In this document: positions 50,427 through 61,367 of the stretch, piece by piece | Numbering within the stretch: the stretch's first letter is position 1 | Layout: every line of letters begins with the position of its first letter | Assembly (NCBI GenBank): GCA_000004985.1 | Contig: GG738917.1 | From: Naegleria gruberi | Lineage: Eukaryota | Strand: one strand, 5' to 3' | DNA length: 64,000 nt | The notes under the pieces: model-generated | The model's input: the letters and a program-made list of their open reading frames with translations, nothing else | Databases searched by the model: none | What the model was told of the DNA's origin: nothing | Translations under genes and position numbers: made by a program

Positions 50427-52103
50427 TTATGGAGAGCTTTGAATACGATTGACAATGGCTGAAACAAGGGCAGAATTATGAACCTCTGCGCCAATACCCA
50501 ATGACTCTCTATCCTTCAAAATGCAACCACTCTTCTTAATACACAAACCAATAGCTGTTTCCAAGATGGTTCCAGTAGATCTCAAAGAATAGCATGGAGC
50601 AACCTTTTGACAACCATAGTAAAAGTATCTGGTAGCACAAGCAGAGAATATTGCGTTACCTCTAATATCTTGTAAACAATCCAATTGACAGGCAACACAT
50701 GGAGTGTTATCAACACCAGCAAAGGAAGCTCTGTCAGGCATTGGATAATCTGATGGACCAGTAACGTGGAATGAGCTAGGAGCAGAAGAAACCAAACCCT
50801 TTGCAGTGGAAGATAAAGAATTCTTAACTTCGTTGGTAGTTTTCTTTTCTCCTTCACTGGCCTTTTCTTTCAATTCCTTTTTAACTTCTGCAATCTTGGC
50901 AAGTGTGAATTCAGCTTTCAAACCATACTTTTTGTTCTTTAAAGTATTGAAAGCTTTCTTATTGAGAGATTTCAATCCTCTTCCCTTACCACCTTTCTTT
51001 CCTCTTCTGCCACCTCTTCTTCCACCTCTTTTACCACCTTTACCTCTTCTTCCACCCTTTCCTTTACCTCTTTTACCACCTTTTCCACCTCTTCTTCCAC
51101 CTTTGCCTCCTTTCTTTCCACCTTTACCTTTTCCACCTTTTCCTTTACCTCCTTTACCTTTTCCACCTTTTCCACCTTTTCCACCTTTTCCTTTACCTCC
51201 TTTTCCTTTTCCACCTTTACCTCCTTTTCCACCTTTGCCTCCCTTTCTTCCAGAATTTCCACCTTTCTTTCCACCATTTGATTTTCCTCCTCTTTTACCT
51301 CCTTTGGCTCCAACAGAATTTCCACCACCTCTTTTACCACCTTTTCCTCCTCTACCTTGTTGTTTTGATGTGGAACGAGCTGTACGACCACCACTGAGAG
51401 CTCCTCTCTTTCCAGATGGTTTACCACCAGTAGCACCAGCACCAGCACGTGAAGCAGATTTTCCACCTCTTTTACCACCAACACCACGTGAAGCAGATTT
51501 TCCAACAGATCCAGAAGTAGCACCAGTACCAGTACCAGCACCACCACGTGAAGCTCCTTTTCCACCTCCTCTTTTACCACCTCCTCCAGAAGAAGTAGCA
51601 CCACCACGAGATACTGAACCACTTCCTCTTCCAACAGAACTTCTTCCACTACTACCACCACTACTAGCACCTCCTCTTGAACCAGCTGATGATGATGAAG
51701 ATGATCTTCCACCACCACTACTACTAGCTCCTCCACCTCTAGAACCTCCTCCAGAAGATGATCCACCACCTCCTCTGGAACCTCCTCCAGAAGATGCTCC
51801 ACCACCTCGTGATCCACCTCCACCACCAGAAGATGATCCACCACCACCTCTTGAACCTCCACCGCCTCCACCACGTCCTAAAGTGTTGATGTTATCCTCA
51901 ATTAATTCTACATCTTCATCTTCATCAGAAGACAATGTAGCAGCAGCTACTACAACGGTACGTTTTTTTCCTGATGAACTGGTCTTGGCAGGTCCACGAC
52001 ATTGACTTGCTGTGGCATTGACACTTTCACATAGTAAAAAACATTGTATGCTGATAATTGCCAGAATAGCGAAAAGTAAAAGACGAATATTCCACTGTGG
52101 CAT
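50427..52103 (-). CDS. Secreted Gly/Arg/Ser/Lys-rich protein with conserved C-terminal 8-Cys domain (family member 1)
   Basis: ATG 52103; signal peptide MPQWNIRLLLFAILAIISIQCFLLCESVNA; TASQCRGP; dibasic SGKKR; acidic patch DEDEDVELIED; ~250 aa of GGGGSRGGG / GGKGGKGKGGKG repeats. C-terminus: ...FHVTGPSDYPMPDRASFAGVDNTPCVACQLDCLQDIRGNAIFSACATRYFYYGCQKVAPCYSLRSTGTILETAIGLCIKKSGCILKDRESLGIGAEVHNSALVSAIVNRIQSSP, alignable residue-for-residue with members 2 and 3. Confidence 0.75.
   Translation of the reverse strand: MPQWNIRLLLFAILAIISIQCFLLCESVNATASQCRGPAKTSSSGKKRTVVVAAATLSSDEDEDVELIEDNINTLGRGGGGGGSRGGGGSSSGGGGGSRGGGASSGGGSRGGGGSSSGGGSRGGGASSSGGGRSSSSSSAGSRGGASSGGSSGRSSVGRGSGSVSRGGATSSGGGGKRGGGKGASRGGAGTGTGATSGSVGKSASRGVGGKRGGKSASRAGAGATGGKPSGKRGALSGGRTARSTSKQQGRGGKGGKRGGGNSVGAKGGKRGGKSNGGKKGGNSGRKGGKGGKGGKGGKGKGGKGKGGKGGKGGKGKGGKGKGGKGKGGKKGGKGGRRGGKGGKRGKGKGGRRGKGGKRGGRRGGRRGKKGGKGRGLKSLNKKAFNTLKNKKYGLKAEFTLAKIAEVKKELKEKASEGEKKTTNEVKNSLSSTAKGLVSSAPSSFHVTGPSDYPMPDRASFAGVDNTPCVACQLDCLQDIRGNAIFSACATRYFYYGCQKVAPCYSLRSTGTILETAIGLCIKKSGCILKDRESLGIGAEVHNSALVSAIVNRIQSSP
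50990..51330. repeat. Degenerate tandem codon repeats (GGT/GGA/AAA/AGA units) encoding KGGKGKGG / RGGKGG
   Basis: Visible as cctttacctttt / ccaccttttcc periodicity on the + strand. Source of shadow ORFs 50806..52005(+) and 50972..51874(-). Confidence 0.6.
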
Positions 52104-52459: not shown

Positions 52460-53557
52460 TTAAATTCTTCTTTCAATGGCTGAGGTAATATATTGCATTG
52501 CATTTGAAATTGTTCTATTCACTTGTTCTTCATTTCCAATCGATGGATTCACCTCTACCAAATCCATTCCAACAAATTTCGAATATTTTTGACATTTTCT
52601 ACAAATCTTTAATCCATCCTGATGTGAAATTCCATTCTCCACAGCTGTTCCTGTACTTGGTGTAAATTCTGGATCAATACCATCCACGTCAAAACTCAAA
52701 AATAATGGAAATTCTGATTGATTTAAATTCAAGTGTGAAAAACATTCTTCCAAACAATATTCGATTTCTAATTGATGAATTTCACTTGCAGTAAAGTGTT
52801 GAATTTTGAACTTTTTCAAGATTTCTTGTTCGAAAGAATCGACATCTCGAAGACCCAAGTAAGCCAACCGAGAAGAAACTAGGAGATTGATTTCTTCATT
52901 CATCCATTCGAAACCAATGTGTGAATTTCTTTCCTCTCCCAAAATTGATTGACCACAGAGGAAAGCAAGTGGCATACCATGCATATTCTTACTCATTGAA
53001 TCTGATTGGTGTCAAATAGTTTATCGACAAGTGACAGAGTTGAGAGTTTAAATAAAAACAAGAAACAAACCTTTTGGAGTGTTAATGTCTGCATGAGCAT
53101 CCACCCACAGTACTCTTAAATCTGGATATTCCATTAACATGGCATAAATTGAGCCAATTGCCACAGAATGATCTCCACCAATGTTTACTATAAATGGTTT
53201 CTTATTGGATTGAACTTGGAAAATAGTGTTGATTGTTTCGGCAATTTGTTGATTGAAGGAGCCAACTCTTCTCTGATTGAGACAAATCTCCATATCATCA
53301 GCCTCTTTGTCTACCAATGTTGAAGGACTTTTCGAATAATCTGGACTATTACTATTCGAATCTCTCTTTTCATTAATTTTAATAACTGGCAAGTGATTTA
53401 ACAATTGTGTTTGTAGTAAATGATAAGCTCCCAACTCAACACCCTCTCTTCTCTGACCCAAGCCACACCAACTTTCCAGAATTACAACATTCTCATTGTT
53501 TTCCTCTTGTTGATTTCTCATCATGTTATCAATGATATTCATTAGCTGTGGATGCAT
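52460..53557 (-). CDS. Arginase-family (ureohydrolase: arginase/agmatinase-type) enzyme, two exons
   Basis: Exon 1 53557..53071 (ATG 53557; ...IVNIGGDHSVAIGSI...[14 protein letters not shown]); 69-nt intron 53070..53002 (GTTTGTTTCTTG...CACCAATCAG); exon 2 53001..52463 in phase 1 (D-SMSKNMHGMPLAFLCGQ...SFDVDGIDP...GMDLVEVNP). All binuclear-metal ligand motifs (GGDHS, DAHAD, SxDVDxxDP) are present. Compare arginase [25 protein letters not shown]. Confidence 0.85.
53002..53070 (-). other. Spliceosomal intron (69 nt) with GTTTGT donor
   Basis: Splitting restores the arginase DAHADINTP...HGMPLAFL block; phase-1 junction. Confidence 0.8.
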
Positions 53558-54142: not shown

Positions 54143-55336
54143 TTAAGCAGAATTTCTAATCTTTGCAACAATTGCTTGGACTTTTGCATTGCCTGAAGCT
54201 CTTGGATCAATTCCTAAATCAGCATTAGATTTGAAACTACATCCACTCTTTTCCAAACACAATCCAAGTCCAACCTCTGTAATGTAAGCATTTTCTCTGA
54301 GAGTGTAACATGGTGCTACTTGCTGACATCCATAAAAGTAATATTGCTTTGGGCAGTTAGAAAATACAGAGCCAGCAAAACTTTGGAAATATTGCATGCA
54401 ATCCAATTTACATGCAACACATTCAGATTGTTGCTTTCCAAAGAATGAGTTACGATTTGCGTGAGAGGTTGAAGTTGGACCTGTAATATTAAAACGAGAT
54501 GGATTATAGTCAACTGTTCTTCTTGCACCTTCAGAGAGGGAAGACCTACCTGAGGCTGGTGGTGCTGCTTTAACTGCTGGCTTAACTGGGACCTTTGGTT
54601 TGACTACAACTTTTGGTTTAACTACAACCTTTGGTTTGACAGCTGGTTTGACATTCTTGACCTTACTTTTAACCTTACTCTTAGTCTTTGATTTGGCCTT
54701 TGATTTACTCTTGGACTTACTCTTTGATTTACTCTTTGATTTGCTCTTTGATTTACTGGTTGACTTGGACTTGCTCTTTGACTTACTAGCAGACTTGCTC
54801 TTTGATTTACTTGCTGATGACTTACTAGATTTGGATTTACTAGCAGATGACTTTCCTGATTTACCTGATTTACCAGATTTACCAGCTCCCTTACCAGCTC
54901 CTCTTCCAGAACCCTTACCAGCTCCTCCTCTTCCAGAACCTTTTCCACCTCCTCTACCAGCACCTCCTCTTCCAGCAGATCCACCACGAGATCCAGAACC
55001 TCCTCTTCCTGATCCACCTCTACCACCACCTCCACCTCTACCACCAGAGGAACCTCCACGACCTCCTCCACCGCCTCCACCTCTACCTCCACCTCCGCCT
55101 CCAGAGCCACCTCCTTTACCGAGAGTGAAAGCATCTGAAAGGGTTTCTTCCAATAATTCTTCCTCCTCCAAATCATCAGAAAGTGTAGTTACTCCTCTTT
55201 TAGCAGAACTCTTGGCTGTATTATCTGGGCCTCTACATTGACTTGCTGTTCCTTCAACAACAATACTGTTACCCAATAAAAATACCAACACAAGAGTTGT
55301 TATTAGAAATAAACAGACGAAACAACGACTTGACAT
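54143..55336 (-). CDS. Secreted Gly/Arg/Ser/Lys-rich protein with conserved C-terminal 8-Cys domain (family member 2)
   Basis: ATG 55336; signal peptide MSSRCFVCLFLITTLVLVFLLGNSIVVEG; TASQCRGP; dibasic SAKR; acidic DDLEEEELLEE; GGGSGGGGGGRGGGG.. block; (SK)n / KSKSKS block; KPKVVVKPKVVVKPKVPVKP. C-terminus: ...FNITGPTSTSHANRNSFFGKQQSECVACKLDCMQYFQSFAGSVFSNCPKQYYFYGCQQVAPCYTLRENAYITEVGLGLCLEKSGCSFKSNADLGIDPRASGNAKVQAIVAKIRNSA. Confidence 0.75.
   Translation of the reverse strand: MSSRCFVCLFLITTLVLVFLLGNSIVVEGTASQCRGPDNTAKSSAKRGVTTLSDDLEEEELLEETLSDAFTLGKGGGSGGGGGGRGGGGGGGRGGSSGGRGGGGGRGGSGRGGSGSRGGSAGRGGAGRGGGKGSGRGGAGKGSGRGAGKGAGKSGKSGKSGKSSASKSKSSKSSASKSKSKSASKSKSKSKSTSKSKSKSKSKSKSKSKSKSKAKSKTKSKVKSKVKNVKPAVKPKVVVKPKVVVKPKVPVKPAVKAAPPASGRSSLSEGARRTVDYNPSRFNITGPTSTSHANRNSFFGKQQSECVACKLDCMQYFQSFAGSVFSNCPKQYYFYGCQQVAPCYTLRENAYITEVGLGLCLEKSGCSFKSNADLGIDPRASGNAKVQAIVAKIRNSA
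54590..54900. repeat. Coding tandem repeats: 21-nt x3 (VKPKVVV) and 12/24-nt units (KSKS...)
   Basis: gacctttggtttgactacaac-ttttggtttaactacaac-ctttggtttgacagc; then ctctttgatttact-type repeats through ~54890. Shadow ORFs 54600..55241(+), 54622..55176(-), 54847..55128(+). Confidence 0.6.
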
Positions 55337-55660: not shown

Positions 55661-57049
55661 TTAAAACAAATCCTCAATGTCCACATTTTCCCATCCTTTG
55701 AAAAATATTCCCTTCTTATTGACATTTAGCATTTTAGCTTCCCATTCTCTGTATCCTTTGATTGGTGCATCAGCGTTTACAATTTTACTGAATACTTTAA
55801 CTCCATTATTAACATTTTCATAAACTCCTGCCAGTAGTTCTAAATCCTGATCAAATATCATATCAACTGTTTTAGCAAATTTGTTTCGTATGAAAGGAAT
55901 CTTGTTCAGAAAATTCAATATGGAGAGGGAGGAATAGAACTTGAATATTACTTTAACTTCACCTTCTCCTGTTGGAATTAAGCAAAATACTTGTGACATT
56001 CTTGGACCTGATCTTTCATTTGCAATATAGTCAGTGGTGTCCATTCTTACAAAGCAAGGTGGAATGAATGATAACTGAACCATAAATTCTGATTTCAGAC
56101 CTGGAATTTTCTTGAATTCTGGTTTTGTGAATCGATAAGTGAAAGAATCTTGATGAATACTTTGATCGTATTGCATTTCTTTTGGAATGAGTCTTCTCGA
56201 TGGATTGTCTGATGGGATATCTTTAGATATTACGAGTTGGCTTTGAATCTGTGTGGCTTGACTTCTCTTTCCAATAGTTCCATCATGTGTAAAATCCAAA
56301 TGAGCAGGGTCAAGCAAATTCTCCAATACAAACGAGTAATGACAAGGTAGGTCTCTTGTGTTTTCTATTAACACTTCTAGTTTTGAAGAATCATCAGTTA
56401 AAAATTCTTCTCTAAATAATTCCAAAGGTATTTGATTAATATCTGCCTTAACCTTATCATTGGGAAATACCCAAATTAGTCCACAACATTCATGAACTTG
56501 TTTTGCTTGGCACTTGATGGTAGAGCACAATCCTTTCATTCTTTCAGACGAAACTGATGGAATTCTAACACATTGTCCTTCTTTTTCAAACCTCCAACCA
56601 TGATAAGCACATTCCAAGGATCTTTTCCCTTCGAATTCTGTAACTTGTCCTGTAGAAAGTTTGGCAGATCTGTGAGGGCATAAATCTTTCACACAAGTAA
56701 TATTGCCATCACTAGTTCTATACAATGCAAGTGGTTCTCCAAATAGCTTGATTGTTTTTGGTTTAGAATCAGTGATGGAAACATCTTTTGAAAGTGCCAC
56801 TGGATACCAAAACAAGGTCATTTCCAAATTTGTAACATCTGATTTGGTTTTAAATGTATCATTAGGAAATTTCTCAATAATATTCTTTTGTTTAAATATG
56901 AACGAAAAATCCAACCAATCAAATAATCGTAGATAATACTTTGATACTACAACCAATCCTCCCACAACGATAGCACCCAATGCTAGGAGCATGCTGATTG
57001 AATATTCCGATCCTAATACTTTACTTCCTATCTTTACGAGTTGTTGCAT
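55661..57049 (-). CDS. Rieske [2Fe-2S] non-heme iron oxygenase, membrane-anchored (PAO/Neverland/KshA-like)
   Basis: ATG 57049; N-terminal TM LGAIVVGGLVVVSKYYL; Rieske motif CPHRSAKLSTGQVTEFEGKRSLECAYHGWRF (CxH...CxxH); mononuclear Fe motif ENLLDPAHLDFTHDG (D..H....H). 462 aa. Confidence 0.8.
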   Translation of the reverse strand: MQQLVKIGSKVLGSEYSISMLLALGAIVVGGLVVVSKYYLRLFDWLDFSFIFKQKNIIEKFPNDTFKTKSDVTNLEMTLFWYPVALSKDVSITDSKPKTIKLFGEPLALYRTSDGNITCVKDLCPHRSAKLSTGQVTEFEGKRSLECAYHGWRFEKEGQCVRIPSVSSERMKGLCSTIKCQAKQVHECCGLIWVFPNDKVKADINQIPLELFREEFLTDDSSKLEVLIENTRDLPCHYSFVLENLLDPAHLDFTHDGTIGKRSQATQIQSQLVISKDIPSDNPSRRLIPKEMQYDQSIHQDSFTYRFTKPEFKKIPGLKSEFMVQLSFIPPCFVRMDTTDYIANERSGPRMSQVFCLIPTGEGEVKVIFKFYSSLSILNFLNKIPFIRNKFAKTVDMIFDQDLELLAGVYENVNNGVKVFSKIVNADAPIKGYREWEAKMLNVNKKGIFFKGWENVDIEDLF

Positions 57050-57437
57050 TTTTTAAAAGAAATTTGATCTTACTTAATCTTGCCTTTACATCATGGCTAA
57101 TTGATCAAGTCGAGTGATAGAAGCTAGGAGGAGATTTAAATTACAACACTAACAAAACGCACTTGAGAAAATCAACAACCAGAAAATATTAGCCTTAAAC
57201 TTTAAGCATTTTTAATCTTAAAAAATATTGATGAAGAGAAGTAAGAAAATGGAAATTCTTCTTACAATTAATTCATAAGAAGTTGATAGGAGAGCTTATT
57301 ATCAATGTCCTTTCAATGTCCACTCAATGTCCACCTAGCTGGAGATGCGAATGATGTCCTCGGTAATGAAATATTAGGAATCCGAAAACCATCATCATAT
57401 TAGACAATTACACTTCATTGAATATTATTTAAACAAA

Positions 57438-58256
57438 ATGACTCAAGGAGAAGAAACATCTGGTTTGAGATTTTTCTCTAGAAACAAAAGCAAAGCTTGG
57501 GCAGAAAAGTTCTTCCTTGCCTATGGCCCTATTTGGATGCTTTACTTTGTCTTTCTGATTTATTATGAAATTTATGAAGGTGCCTCGAAACTTGGTTGGA
57601 CAATGTTTGGTGTCATAATGGCAACTCCTTGTGTTATGTATCCATTGATGTTTCCAGGAAAGGCAGACAGCAAGTTACCAATCACTGAAAGATATTGGTT
57701 TAAGGCTAATCTTTGGATTTTATTTTTCAATTTTGTTGGAAATTATTTCTGGACTCACTACTTTTTCAATCTACTTGGAGCTAGATATACTTTGGAGGCA
57801 TATAGTATCAATGATATTCCTTATTTGATGTTTTTCTGCACCCAAGCTTATTTCACTTTTTATTTCACATTTAGTAATGTTCTATTGAGAATGATTTATA
57901 CTGGAATGAAAGAATCAAGAGGGAGAACTGTCTTTGTTGTATTGTTCCTTTGTGCATTTTGCTATTTCACAGCCTATATGGAAACACTCACAATCCAACA
58001 TTTCAAATATTACACACACAAAAATAGGGATGCAATGTTAAAGTACGGTTCAATTTTCTATGCTCTATACTTTATTGTTGGATTTCCAATGTATTTCAGA
58101 GTGGATGAAGAGGAGAAGGAGAAGAAATTTTCCACATGGAAAGTTGTCACTGAGAGCTTGGCATCATGCATGTTAGTGACTATATTGCTTGACTTTTGGA
58201 GATTGATTATTGGAGGAATCATTCCAGATATTCCTCAATGCAATTGGAAAAATTAA
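57438..58256 (+). CDS. CPI1: Cycloeucalenol cycloisomerase (CPI1; opens the 9beta,19-cyclopropane ring in cycloartenol-route sterol synthesis)
   Basis: 272 aa, multi-TM. KANLWILFFNFVGNYFWTHYFFNLLGARYTLEAY matches, as I recall it, the plant CPI1 block ANLWIIVFSYVGNYFWTHYFFKVLGASYTF; AYMETLTIQHFKYY / AYLETIAIANFPYY and YALYFIVGFPMYFRVDE / YAIYFIVSFPMFFRMDE also align. Confidence 0.8.
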   Translation: MTQGEETSGLRFFSRNKSKAWAEKFFLAYGPIWMLYFVFLIYYEIYEGASKLGWTMFGVIMATPCVMYPLMFPGKADSKLPITERYWFKANLWILFFNFVGNYFWTHYFFNLLGARYTLEAYSINDIPYLMFFCTQAYFTFYFTFSNVLLRMIYTGMKESRGRTVFVVLFLCAFCYFTAYMETLTIQHFKYYTHKNRDAMLKYGSIFYALYFIVGFPMYFRVDEEEKEKKFSTWKVVTESLASCMLVTILLDFWRLIIGGIIPDIPQCNWKN

Positions 58257-59164: not shown

Positions 59165-59851
59165 TTATTCCACATTACAAAAAGATGTTCCAACAAAAAC
59201 AGCATCAGTATTGGAGAAAGGTTCAAGTGTTAGCAATTCTCTTGGTTTGAAATACTTTTTAACATCGGTGATTGTTTCTTGGGTCCATTCTACAGATTGT
59301 TGAACGTATCCTTCAGGTTTGTGTAGTACAATATAAAAATCTCCACCTTCTTTAAGGAATAATTTGGCATTCTCTGTCATTGCTTTGTGAGTACCATTTG
59401 TCATTATGATGTCCACTTTTTCAGGAATTTCTGATTGATATTCAGATGGATTATTTGCACTTCCACTAATTGCAATAAGATTATTTCTTTGTGATTGCAA
59501 TTTTGCAACAATTTGATAGTCAGATTCAGAACTATTAACACAATAAACTTTTCCACTAGTAGAAATAATATCCGAAATAAAAGATAAGGTAATTGGTGCA
59601 ACATCAATACACAATATCTTTCCTCCTGGTTTGACACTCATAAAGTGCAAACCAGACACAATGCTGGCAGCCAGGCGACAATCCACTCTCCATTTTCTAT
59701 ATTCAGTTCCGTTAATTGTAACGATTTCATCAAAATCAAAAACTTCAGGAATATTTGGTGCATAGTTTACAGTACACAATACATGGAATGGCTCTTCAGG
59801 ACTTGTTGTGATGAACATATTTGGAAATCTGTGTGGTTCAATTGTTGACAT
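59165..59851 (-). CDS. Divergent fibrillarin-like methyltransferase-fold protein (no GAR domain; SAM-binding motif degenerate)
   Basis: Track ORF 59165..60076 overlaps the upstream BTB gene; internal ATG at 59851 (MSTIEPHRFPNMF...). Aligns along the fibrillarin catalytic domain: IEPHRF (VEPHRH), YRKWRVDCRLAASIVSGL (YRAWNPFRSKLAAAILGG), KPGGKILCIDVAPITLSFISDIISTSGKVYCVNSSE ([36 protein letters not shown]), ELLTLEPFSNTDAVFVG (EQLTLEPYERDHAVVVG). Confidence 0.6.
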   Translation of the reverse strand: MSTIEPHRFPNMFITTSPEEPFHVLCTVNYAPNIPEVFDFDEIVTINGTEYRKWRVDCRLAASIVSGLHFMSVKPGGKILCIDVAPITLSFISDIISTSGKVYCVNSSESDYQIVAKLQSQRNNLIAISGSANNPSEYQSEIPEKVDIIMTNGTHKAMTENAKLFLKEGGDFYIVLHKPEGYVQQSVEWTQETITDVKKYFKPRELLTLEPFSNTDAVFVGTSFCNVE

Positions 59852-59903
59852 TTTTTTTTGATGATAAATCAACGGAAGGATTGGTTGTTTTGCAATGTTA
59901 CCT

Positions 59904-61367
59904 TCATTGTAAAATGCAATTATTTGTTGAGGATGACAGCAAAGATTGCACTCTCTTGAAGTTTGTGAAATGTTGAAGGTGTTTCTTGTAGGATTCGTAG
60001 TTAGCTTTCTCCTTTTCATACTTTTCAAGTTCTGTGTAGTAATAGGAAGGAGGCCACACATTTGTTTTGATTTCAATCAAATCTTCTTCCTCTAGAGAAT
60101 TCTGAATGAGTGGTAAATAGTTTGCATAATTGTTTGTCATATAGTAGAGGCATAGTTTTCGTAATTGTTTGGCATTGTAAAGTTTAGAAAACAAGTAGAG
60201 AGTTACAATTTCTTCACTGCCATTTTTTGCATTCTCTTCATTGATAGATTTCGATATGAAAACTTCACATTGAGTTTCAAGATGATTCATGTTATATAGG
60301 TGAGCTATGGCTAAAATTGTACACACAGAATTGGAATCAAATACAGGTTGTCTGTGATAGACATGTTGTAGAAAGGCCTCGCATCCTTTGATTTGATCTT
60401 CAATGGAATTAGTTAATTCTTGACCTTCAAATAGATTAATTTCAGTCATGGAAGAAGAGCTCTCAATAAAGCCATCTGTGAACATAACCTTAAAGACATC
60501 ACTGCACACAAATAGAAAACATTTGTTGGCGTATCTGTAGTTATCTCCAATTTTGAATTGAACATCAGCATACTCTTTCTTTCCAAAGAAGTTTGTGTTT
60601 AGTTTCGAATAGAAATCCTGCATAATATTTTCAGATCCCTCATTAAACAAATCACACTTATCGTAAAAGTTTTTCAGAGATGGTGCGTCGAATAAGAGTG
60701 ATAATTCATCAATTCTTCCTTTCAGGAATTTCTTCTCTAGATTAATAGTTTTCCCACAGTAAGTCAATTCTAGTATGGTTATAAATTCTTGTGTTGATAT
60801 AGATTCTACTAGCTCAAGTTTGAAAATTTTCTCCTCATAAAGTATGGTCTTAAATAAAGTGGAGTACTCAGAATAGAGCTCCGGTATTTCTTCTATCTTA
60901 TCGTTTGCAGCAAGATATTTCAATTTAGTGAATAAATTTTCCAATACTTTCGAGCAAGAACAGCTCAGAATAATACTATGAGCATATAGATTTTCTATTT
61001 CATTATTCTCATAATTCATTCCAATAATATGTACATCAGAAAATGCAGAATTATTGAGTAGTGATTGATTATTCTCAAATGAAAATCCAATTCTTTCTAA
61101 CGGTTGAGGTTTTTCTCTTTTCTCTGGTAATCGAGGACATTTCCTCACAGGAGGTGGAAGACAAGTGGAAACAAGGAGTTTCAAAGTGGATACTTTTGTT
61201 TCCTGATACGCTGCATTTATCACTCGATGCATGCACAAAGTTACATTAATATCCAAATCCGAACTTATGAGATAACTTGCACAAACATTATCCTCATTCT
61301 TTTTCACCACATTCATAATATCCTCCTCAATTATTGATCTTTGCAAATCAAAATTTTCATTCATCAT
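59904..61367 (-). CDS. Double BTB/POZ (plus BACK-like) domain protein
   Basis: 487 aa, ATG 61367. BTB 1 around FSDVHIIGMNYENNEIENLYAHSIILSCSCSKVLENLF. BTB 2 plus BACK around YADVQFKIGDNYRYANKCFLFVCSDVFKVMF...LAIAHLYNMNHLETQCEVFI...LRKLCLYYMTNN. Confidence 0.7.
   Translation of the reverse strand: MMNENFDLQRSIIEEDIMNVVKKNEDNVCASYLISSDLDINVTLCMHRVINAAYQETKVSTLKLLVSTCLPPPVRKCPRLPEKREKPQPLERIGFSFENNQSLLNNSAFSDVHIIGMNYENNEIENLYAHSIILSCSCSKVLENLFTKLKYLAANDKIEEIPELYSEYSTLFKTILYEEKIFKLELVESISTQEFITILELTYCGKTINLEKKFLKGRIDELSLLFDAPSLKNFYDKCDLFNEGSENIMQDFYSKLNTNFFGKKEYADVQFKIGDNYRYANKCFLFVCSDVFKVMFTDGFIESSSSMTEINLFEGQELTNSIEDQIKGCEAFLQHVYHRQPVFDSNSVCTILAIAHLYNMNHLETQCEVFISKSINEENAKNGSEEIVTLYLFSKLYNAKQLRKLCLYYMTNNYANYLPLIQNSLEEEDLIEIKTNVWPPSYYYTELEKYEKEKANYESYKKHLQHFTNFKRVQSLLSSSTNNCILQ

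Follow-up and report, generated by a model that had tools for sequence, protein, structure and literature searches.

A PAO-like Rieske oxygenase gene and a cycloeucalenol cycloisomerase gene are divergent neighbours in Naegleria gruberi

On a 64,000-nucleotide stretch of Naegleria gruberi DNA (hereafter the window), a gene for a Rieske non-heme iron oxygenase stands head to head with a gene for a CPI1-family isomerase of the sterol pathway. An earlier note had read the two genes as a possible sterol-modification module. It preferred a sterol C7-desaturase of the Neverland/DAF-36/DES7 type for the oxygenase, proposed co-regulation with the isomerase, and named a PAO-type enzyme as an alternative. 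This arrangement raises the question whether the two genes share a function or a regulation, or whether they are neighbours by coincidence.

The two genes and the isomerase

Analysis of the locus bore out exactly the two open reading frames, the Fe-S and iron motifs, the N-terminal anchor and the divergent spacer described before (Table 1). The gene calls were right as well: the pair consists of a true CPI1-family isomerase and a true membrane-anchored Rieske non-heme oxygenase.

Table 1. Coordinates of the genes, protein domains and spacer elements at the Rieske/CPI locus (positions in the window)
Feature	Coordinates	Strand	Details
PAO-like (PaO/LLS1-type) Rieske non-heme iron oxygenase	55661..57049	-	462 aa
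PaO domain (Pfam PF08417), residues 328-415	55805..56068	-	51 bits vs gathering score 27
Mononuclear iron motif, residues 243-255	56285..56323	-	E243-N-x2-D247-x2-H250-x4-H255
Rieske [2Fe-2S] domain, residues 81-168	56546..56809	-	Pfam Rieske 1.9e-24
Codons for hydrophobic N-terminal membrane anchor, about residues 15-40	56930..57007	-	hydropathy
Divergent intergenic spacer	57050..57437		388 bp, 30% GC
Three tandem copies of 11-bp unit TCAATGTCCAC	57302..57334	+	104 bp upstream of CPI ATG
Cycloeucalenol/cyclopropylsterol cycloisomerase (CPI1 family)	57438..58256	+	272 aa, intronless, multi-pass membrane protein

Alignment of the CPI product over its full length showed 71% identical aa for the N. 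fowleri sequence and 42-45% for plant sequences. Comparison with proteins named cycloeucalenol cycloisomerase gave E-values from 1.6e-127 to 1e-60 at 92-99% coverage. The likeness to plant CPI1 (EC 5.5.1.9) consists of full-length homology at this identity with all invariant residues kept (25 of the 25 columns invariant across 27 aligned sequences). Pfam and NCBIfam hold no model for the CPI family, and the exact 272-aa product was not found in the protein collection searched.

A route from cycloartenol to ergosterol, including a cyclopropylsterol isomerase, has been documented for Naegleria (Zhou et al. 2018), and by its sequence the window CPI would fit this route, on which it would open the 9beta,19-cyclopropane ring of cycloartenol-derived intermediates. 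The published accession of the N. gruberi isomerase is XP_002672776, whereas the window CPI is without an entry in the collection; judged by the accession numbering, XP_002672776 appears to lie on another scaffold than the window CPI. A search with the N. fowleri CPI revealed no second N. gruberi CPI among the best 120 matches listed. In the tree, the window CPI fell outside a pair formed by N. fowleri and Willaertia with 100% support, and a metagenome scan for loci near to the Naegleria CPI revealed nothing above 58% identity.

Domain architecture and relatives of the oxygenase

The oxygenase is 100% identical to N. gruberi XP_002670299 (EFC37555; D2W054), whose database model begins at the second methionine (443 aa vs 462 aa). 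An AF2 model of the protein displayed a predicted helix (residues 18-45) at the hydrophobic N-terminal segment. The [2Fe-2S] motif is present as C124-P-H126 ... C147-A-Y-H150, and D402, downstream of the mononuclear iron motif ENx2Dx2Hx4H, is a candidate for the third iron ligand, invariant in an alignment of 52 sequences. XP_002670299 combines Rieske, VanA_C and PaO domains, each above the Pfam gathering score, with the PaO domain nested within the VanA_C-type catalytic domain (residues 235-441). Comparison of the AF2 model with solved structures by Foldseek against PDB revealed alpha3 mono-oxygenases as the nearest structures, e.g. DdmC, NdmB and SxtT/GxtA.

The protein resembles the plant PaO family (PAO/ACD1(LLS1), CAO, TIC55 and PTC52) in its Rieske motif, in the iron motif, whose form is that given for PTC52 of the PAO family (PMC6530659), in the invariant distal aspartate and in the PaO domain. 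The alignment with these plant proteins is collinear over about 360 residues, albeit with just 21-28% identical aa; a plant ACD1/PAO-like protein aligned with residues 81-442 (28% identity, E 3e-23). In contrast to the plant family, the window protein has no C-terminal membrane helices and no plastid targeting, is anchored N-terminally and belongs to a non-photosynthetic host. It also lacks the C-terminal CxxC thioredoxin-target motif found in PAO, TIC55 and PTC52 (PMC6530659). The absence of any CxxC from the 462 aa argues against orthology to these three proteins in particular, but is compatible with a place in the wider PaO family.

The PaO architecture and a similarity to KshA that is limited mainly to the Rieske domain speak against a sterol C7-desaturase identity. 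Neverland proteins carry the KshA_C domain. The KshA_C model (PF19298) gave no match in the window protein even at E<=10; with the same model, a true KshA-type protein encoded on a metagenomic contig reached 123 bits, and this protein aligned to the window protein over residues 75-164 only. KshA chains from PDB reached 29-37 bits, and in two of the three the best stretch comprised the Rieske domain only. This comparison with Neverland is based on the Pfam architecture, the KshA chains, the one KshA_C-bearing metagenomic protein and the literature, in which Neverland groups with KshA (PMC4064121). The window protein shares with Neverland, DAF-36 and Tetrahymena DES7 that they are membrane-anchored eukaryotic Rieske oxygenases with an N-terminal anchor and generic Fe-S and iron motifs; unlike the Neverland clan, it is without KshA_C, and its similarity to the KshA_C-bearing protein ends after the Rieske domain. 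Moreover, the DAF-36-like 7-desaturase named for N. gruberi in the literature is XP_002682415 and not XP_002670299. Given the PaO domain, the length-wise alignment with plant PAO/ACD1-like proteins and this separate DAF-36-like protein, the preferred hypothesis of a Neverland/DAF-36/DES7-like enzyme does not pass the test that the note itself had set for it, whereas the PAO-type alternative agrees with both the domain and the alignment.

The best NCBIfam match of the oxygenase was SdmA (NF052579), a bacterial 4beta-methylsterol monooxygenase. SdmA resembles the window protein as a Rieske enzyme of the VanA_C type and acts on a sterol. However, the score of 87 bits lies far below the cut-off of 600 bits, and the match covered profile positions 16-174 of 351, the N-terminal half only. 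Cyanobacterial and other bacterial relatives gave the same sub-threshold match (76-235 bits), which makes it a family-level resemblance; an SdmA identity was dropped on this ground.

Phylogenetic analysis placed the window gene together with XP_002671865 in an N. gruberi pair with 100% support, sister to single copies of N. fowleri and N. lovaniensis. This topology makes the window gene and XP_002671865 duplicates specific to N. gruberi, and just two N. gruberi proteins with a Rieske and PaO-type architecture were retrieved in the homology search. The closest relatives outside Heterolobosea come from bdelloid rotifers and rotifer-like contigs, and the neighbours of the rotifer-like relatives are inconsistent (nitrate reductase/MFS; a hAT transposon; RING/Ank genes). 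Bacterial relatives carry the label renierapurpurin hydroxylase-like.

N. gruberi genes have been assigned to the TIC55/PAO/CAO family before (Maruyama 2009), and two Rieske genes described as PAO-like, with an N-terminal membrane-spanning segment, have been reported from Naegleria sp. (Uzuka 2019; PMC6898599). The genus, the number of copies, the N-terminal segment and the Rieske and PaO domains are all in common with the genes described here, and the published tree takes in N. gruberi homologues. The function of these PAO-like genes was inferred from their light- and prey-dependent expression: their induction by light reached 231x and 26x on green prey, took place on pale prey too and was greater with chlorophyll a; one copy responded to H2O2 (PMC6898599).

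Conservation of the arrangement

Adjacency of a Rieske and a CPI gene was present only in N. gruberi-type sequences, namely in the window and in one contig with 97.6% identity. The N. fowleri CPI has MKT1 and a PAS protein as neighbours and no Rieske gene; the N. fowleri Rieske orthologue lies between TM2 and Zn_clus genes. One Willaertia CPI is flanked by TPR and HAD-like genes, not by a Rieske gene; downstream of the other lies a PAS gene, with no gene calls listed on the upstream side. A tblastn search detected no Rieske sequence within 10 kb of the N. fowleri and the two Willaertia CPI genes, and it yielded no PaO-type Rieske gene from 34 metagenomic CPI loci, each 5 kb or longer. Further sterol genes were not found in the 24 kb scanned.

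The spacer between the two genes is of ordinary length. Spacers of 341 and 368 bp separate the genes of two other divergent pairs within the same 24 kb, so a common upstream region of about 390 bp is the default architecture here, and the significance of the Rieske/CPI pairing is not beyond chance. The TCAATGTCCAC triple repeat in the spacer could be a cis-element. The tandem 11-mer occurs five times in the window vs 0.9 expected, with three of the five copies inside the spacer. The repeat is retained in the sister-strain contig and was not found in the N. fowleri and Willaertia loci. Its conservation is uninformative, since the only other sequence that retains it is the one 97.6% identical overall.

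In the dark-to-light shift that raised the PAO-like genes of Naegleria sp., a CPI1 contig was among the down-regulated genes (PMC6898599); these data come from another Naegleria isolate. The missing conservation of the adjacency and, in that isolate, these opposite responses speak against the view of the pair as a sterol module co-regulated from a common promoter.

Interpretation of the pair

We consider it likely that the two genes are functionally unrelated, that they became divergent neighbours in N. gruberi by coincidence, and that the oxygenase is PAO-like and probably tetrapyrrole-related. The head-to-head arrangement would have arisen within the N. gruberi lineage, without demonstrated regulatory meaning. 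The a priori odds for a membrane Rieske oxygenase to lie beside one of about 30 sterol genes among about 16,000 are of the order of 0.5% per gene, and in view of this improbability we infer the chance adjacency and do not regard it as demonstrated. The oxygenase itself would be tethered to the membrane through its N-terminal helix and is probably an alpha3-type Rieske mono-oxygenase. Its [2Fe-2S] cluster (C124, H126, C147, H150) would receive electrons from a putative ferredoxin/reductase and hand them on to the mononuclear iron centre (H250, H255, D402), which may activate O2 against a hydrophobic substrate in the VanA_C/PaO pocket. For the isolate of Naegleria that digests cyanobacterial prey, a role of the PAO-like genes in the oxidation or detoxification of tetrapyrroles from chlorophyll has been suggested (PMC6898599), and by analogy with the expression in that isolate the window oxygenase may act on chlorophyll catabolites.

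A coincidental neighbour could also have another substrate. Carotenoids (cf. the CruH-like relatives), xenobiotics or oxidised lipids, oxidised in a general response to light or ROS, would be in line with the light induction in the absence of green prey, the H2O2-responsive copy, the renierapurpurin hydroxylase-like label of the bacterial relatives, the rotifer and rotifer-like nearest relatives with their unrelated neighbours, and the missing CxxC. We regard this as unlikely, because the presence of chlorophyll a raises the induction and all four characterised plant PaO-domain members act on chlorophyll-related tetrapyrroles (PMC6898599). A link through regulation and not through a common pathway is improbable in our estimate: a divergent second CPI copy would have come to lie, after the duplication, beside a PAO-like gene responsive to light or oxidative stress, with cis-elements such as the three copies of TCAATGTCCAC common to both. 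Both genes look lineage-specific or divergent, with the Rieske duplication confined to N. gruberi, the window CPI outside the N. fowleri and Willaertia pair, and another accession as the CPI of the literature; the excess of the 11-mer, with its copies within the spacer, points the same way. However, the one reported CPI1 contig falls while the PAO-like genes rise, albeit in another isolate, and orthologous loci in other species lack the repeat, with the nearly identical sister contig uninformative on this point. If such a young unit were real, sterol remodelling would be linked to photo-oxidative stress.

The least probable readings, in our judgement, give the oxygenase a sterol substrate. As a sterol-modification module, the pair would combine the CPI with a Rieske C7-desaturase, C22-desaturase or 4-methyl oxidase transcribed with it from a bidirectional promoter. 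The adjacency across a common spacer, the existence of Rieske oxygenases that act on sterols (Neverland, KshA, SdmA) and SdmA as the top NCBIfam match would speak for it, as would a bacterial contig in which a CPI-like gene is clustered with a KshA-type Rieske oxygenase, and no C22-desaturase or 3-ketoreductase gene has been identified for Naegleria in the literature. Nevertheless, the architecture is PaO-type and not KshA-type, the DAF-36-like gene of N. gruberi is a separate one, the SdmA score lies far under its cut-off, the adjacency is absent from N. fowleri and Willaertia, and the published light responses in another isolate are opposite in sign. The module is unsupported on account of this architecture, the separate DAF-36-like protein, the match of this duplicated gene to the light-induced PAO-like genes of the other isolate and an adjacency that is not conserved across an ordinary spacer. 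No more credit can be given to a newly assembled, N. gruberi-specific unit, in which either the oxygenase would have taken on a sterol reaction, e.g. C22-desaturation or the oxidation of 5,7-diene sterols, which are light-sensitive, or the spacer with its triple 11-bp repeat would couple sterol remodelling to light or photo-oxidative stress.

Neither kind of gene is new to Naegleria. The CPI and the cycloartenol route were recognised there decades ago and documented again in 2018, and descriptions of the PAO-like Rieske genes date from 2009 and 2019. What the PAO-like enzymes of Heterolobosea and rotifers may do is a question separate from the gene pairing. The useful outcome for N. gruberi is a negative one: as another locus encodes its DAF-36-like protein, the window Rieske gene should not be annotated as a sterol C7-desaturase, nor pursued as such or as a drug-target homologue.

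Structure and surroundings of the divergent gene pair

The Rieske oxygenase and CPI1-family ORFs were found exactly where the earlier note had placed them, in divergent orientation across a spacer of 388 bp (30% GC; the whole window has ~33%). The gene identities proposed there were confirmed as well, by Rieske motifs and a hydrophobic N-terminus in one product and by full-length CPI-family homology in the other. The Rieske product matches XP_002670299 / EFC37555 / D2W054 with 100% identity, identifying the species as Naegleria gruberi; the database model of XP_002670299 begins at the second Met of the ORF. At 341 and 368 bp, the spacers of two further divergent pairs close by are similar in length, so a shared upstream region of 388 bp is usual in a genome as compact as this one. 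The triplet TCAATGTCCAC in the spacer may be a transcription-factor site. Its 9-mer core occurs five times in the window (0.9 expected), and the repeat is kept in the sister-strain contig L011, which is 97.6% identical; a search of the N. fowleri and Willaertia loci revealed no such repeat.

Features of the window, of the Rieske protein (residues) and of metagenomic contigs
Feature	Position	Strand	Details
Rieske oxygenase ORF	55661-57049	-	462 aa
CPI1-family ORF	57438-58256	+	272 aa
Tandem 11-mer TCAATGTCCAC	57302-57334		3x, perfect register; 104 bp upstream of CPI start codon
Rieske domain (Pfam)	residues 81-168		
VanA_C (Pfam)	residues 235-441		
PaO (Pfam)	residues 328-415		51 bits vs gathering score 27
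GC-rich segment	50001-52000		GC 0.42, background ~0.33
ORF	50427-52103	-	558 aa
Arginase-family gene	52460-53557	-	two ORFs, 52460-52996 and 53048-53557
ORF	54143-55336	-	397 aa
Fibrillarin-like ORF	59165-60076	-	Pfam Fibrillarin 1.6e-31, from residue 79
BTB-domain ORF	59904-61367	-	
CPI-family homologue	L077:5989-6864		29% identity
Apparent steroid-catabolism cluster	L077:1-12855		
PaO-like Rieske gene group	L006:2193-9299		
PaO-like Rieske gene group	L007:2475-9551		

In the Rieske protein the cluster ligands are C124-P-H126 ... C147-A-Y-H150, the mononuclear iron motif is E243-N-x2-D247-x2-H250-x4-H255, and D402 is invariant in an alignment of 52 sequences. The N-terminal hydrophobic stretch covers approximately residues 15-40; a confident AF2 model (mean pLDDT 85.9) displays an N-terminal helix at residues 18-45. 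A Pfam search at E<=10 detected nothing beyond the three domains listed, and no KshA_C. Gene structure, motifs and domain architecture are established.

Several other genes surround the pair. The two ORFs of the arginase-family gene correspond to successive stretches of the Pfam Arginase profile, which indicates a short intron of ~50 bp; the split is called identically in L011. The 397-aa ORF combines a hydrophobic N-terminus with long low-complexity runs (Gly-Arg-Ser and Ser-Lys) and a C-terminal part rich in Cys; it has no Pfam match, and its counterpart in L011 (395 aa) adjoins the Rieske gene. The fibrillarin-like ORF encodes a divergent fibrillarin-fold methyltransferase-like protein and, as listed, overlaps the 3' end of the BTB-domain ORF by ~170 bp; it probably starts at an internal Met. 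The GC-rich segment has a strongly negative GC skew and coincides with the 558-aa ORF (no Pfam match) and with long ORFs that overlap one another on both strands; this points to coding sequence that is repetitive or of low complexity.

Family placement of the Rieske protein

Sequence searches placed the relatives of the Rieske protein in three tiers. The first comprises its N. gruberi paralogue XP_002671865 (64% identity), one gene each from N. fowleri and N. lovaniensis (49%) and a pair from Willaertia. At 33-38% identity, proteins of bdelloid rotifers and of rotifer-like metagenomic contigs make up the second. The third contains plant ACD1-like/PTC52 proteins, whose matches cover 78% of the Rieske protein, together with bacterial Rieske+VanA_C proteins, for which only the Rieske part matches. 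BLASTP aligned the protein collinearly with a plant ACD1-like protein over residues 81-442 (28% identity, E 3e-23), whereas a bona fide Rieske+KshA_C protein aligned only over residues 75-164. Scores against solved structures were 62-71 bits for phthalate dioxygenase, DdmC, NdmB and SxtT/GxtA and 29-37 bits for KshA chains, with the best KshA stretch limited to the Rieske domain in two of three chains and reaching residue 255 in the third. Foldseek with the AF2 model left this ranking unchanged.

Neverland has a KshA_C domain. It also groups with KshA (KshA review, PMC4064121). The PaO domain, the collinearity with ACD1-like proteins, the missing KshA_C and the clustering of Neverland with KshA settle the position of the protein relative to KshA-type enzymes; it belongs to the PaO-domain group (PAO/CAO/TIC55/PTC52), outside the Neverland/KshA clan. 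Of the enzyme types considered in the earlier note, the same evidence argues against a Neverland/DAF-36/DES7-type sterol desaturase, and the PaO score above the gathering threshold together with the ACD1-like alignment favours the PAO-type alternative. In contrast to PAO, TIC55 and PTC52, which have a C-terminal CxxC, the protein lacks this motif and its membrane anchor is N-terminal. SdmA, a bacterial sterol 4-methyl oxidase, was the top NCBIfam match, but its score of 87 bits lies far below the cut-off of 600; this identity was dropped, as cyanobacterial and other bacterial relatives also match SdmA below threshold.

Duplication, synteny and the CPI copy

In a simple neighbour-joining tree (30 bootstraps) the Rieske protein and XP_002671865 paired with 100% support, sister to N. 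fowleri and N. lovaniensis (100%). The gene is thus a duplicate of the N. gruberi lineage, and the duplication is species-specific.

Synteny of the pair is not conserved. The N. fowleri CPI has MKT1 on one side and a PAS protein on the other. Of the Willaertia CPIs, one is flanked by TPR and HAD-like genes, and the other, with gene calls on its downstream side only, is followed there by a gene for a PAS protein. In N. fowleri the Rieske orthologue has TM2 and Zn_clus genes as its neighbours. By tblastn, which does not rely on gene calls, neither the N. fowleri CPI nor the Willaertia CPIs have a Rieske gene closer than 10 kb, and the N. fowleri Rieske gene lacks a CPI over the same distance. 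A PaO-type Rieske neighbour was likewise missing from all 34 metagenomic CPI loci with a length of 5 kb or more. The only further sequence with the pair is L011, which at its identity to the window represents the same species complex.

Over its full length the window CPI belongs to the family named cycloeucalenol cycloisomerase by the sources. Its identity is 71% with the N. fowleri protein, 70% and 59% with the pair of Willaertia magna copies, and 42-45% with plant and dictyostelid sequences; it keeps all 25 columns invariant among 27 aligned sequences. The exact 272-aa product is absent from a collection of 15 billion proteins, and no N. gruberi-labelled CPI occurs among the best 120 matches to CPI queries. 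The CPI tree joins the window copy to an environmental fragment and leaves it outside the N. fowleri and Willaertia pair (100% support). The published N. gruberi cyclopropylsterol isomerase, XP_002672776 (Zhou et al. 2018, PMC6136796), appears from its accession number to lie on another scaffold. Tree position, absence from the collection and this numbering suggest, without proving it, that the window CPI is a second, more divergent, unannotated paralogue.

Relatives on other contigs showed different arrangements. On L077 (CERN01004034.1), a bacterial-looking metagenome contig of 244 kb, the cluster around the CPI homologue comprises TetR, 3beta-HSD-like and KstD-like FAD enzyme genes, an old-yellow-enzyme (Oxidored_FMN)+Pyr_redox fusion, a TonB receptor and a Rieske+KshA_C oxygenase. 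With further CPI-like matches (29-35% identity) on the long contigs L055, L076, L060, L063 and L079, this suggests a bacterial CPI-like family tied to steroid metabolism. On the rotifer-like contigs L006 and L007 an MFS_1 transporter and an assimilatory nitrate reductase of eukaryotic type (Mo-co/cyt-b5/FAD) are found immediately upstream of the PaO-like Rieske gene, with TRPM2/NUDT9-like animal genes close by; the group could be a foreign-gene block in a bdelloid genome. Neither arrangement alters the reading of the window.

Sterol metabolism or chance adjacency

Most likely the two genes, both of known kinds, are neighbours by coincidence and in this lineage only. We consider it very improbable that the enzyme has sterols as substrates or that the two genes form a young unit under common regulation, even though adjacency is improbable a priori, the spacer repeat is unexplained and the C22-desaturase and 3-ketoreductase of Naegleria are still missing (Zhou et al. 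2018, PMC6136796). The cycloartenol-to-ergosterol pathway reconstructed in that study includes a DAF-36-like 7-desaturase of N. gruberi, XP_002682415, which is a different protein from XP_002670299. The 24 kb around the pair encode an arginase, a Gly/Ser/Lys-rich protein, a kinase, and Timeless-like, fibrillarin-like and BTB proteins, with no further sterol gene.

N. gruberi genes have been placed in the TIC55/CAO/PAO family (Maruyama et al. 2009, PMC3087521). In a Naegleria isolate, two genes encode proteins with Rieske and PAO-like domains and an N-terminal membrane-spanning segment; it was proposed that they had been acquired horizontally and serve to break down or detoxify the chlorophyll of ingested photosynthetic prey, and N. 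gruberi homologues are part of the same gene tree (Uzuka et al. 2019, PMC6898599). The two N. gruberi Rieske proteins agree with these in architecture and copy number and may correspond to them one to one. With green prey, a shift to light raised the two genes 231-fold and 26-fold by qRT-PCR, and they increased with pale prey as well; a CPI1 contig and HMG-CoA synthase were among the significantly down-regulated sequences in the same experiment (PMC6898599). Of the two arguments against its sterol module named in the earlier note, clustering with PAO is essentially what is found, and the opposite trends in the isolate would point to uncorrelated expression.

These trends presumably hold for exactly the N. 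gruberi loci described here. On the most likely reading, the window CPI is an isomerase of the CPI1 family that acts in the known cycloartenol pathway, and the Rieske enzyme a PAO-like, N-terminally anchored mono-oxygenase of a light- and prey-responsive family, its oligomeric state and electron path probably resembling those of alpha3 Rieske oxygenases. As its substrate, the published expression data point to a chlorophyll-derived tetrapyrrole.
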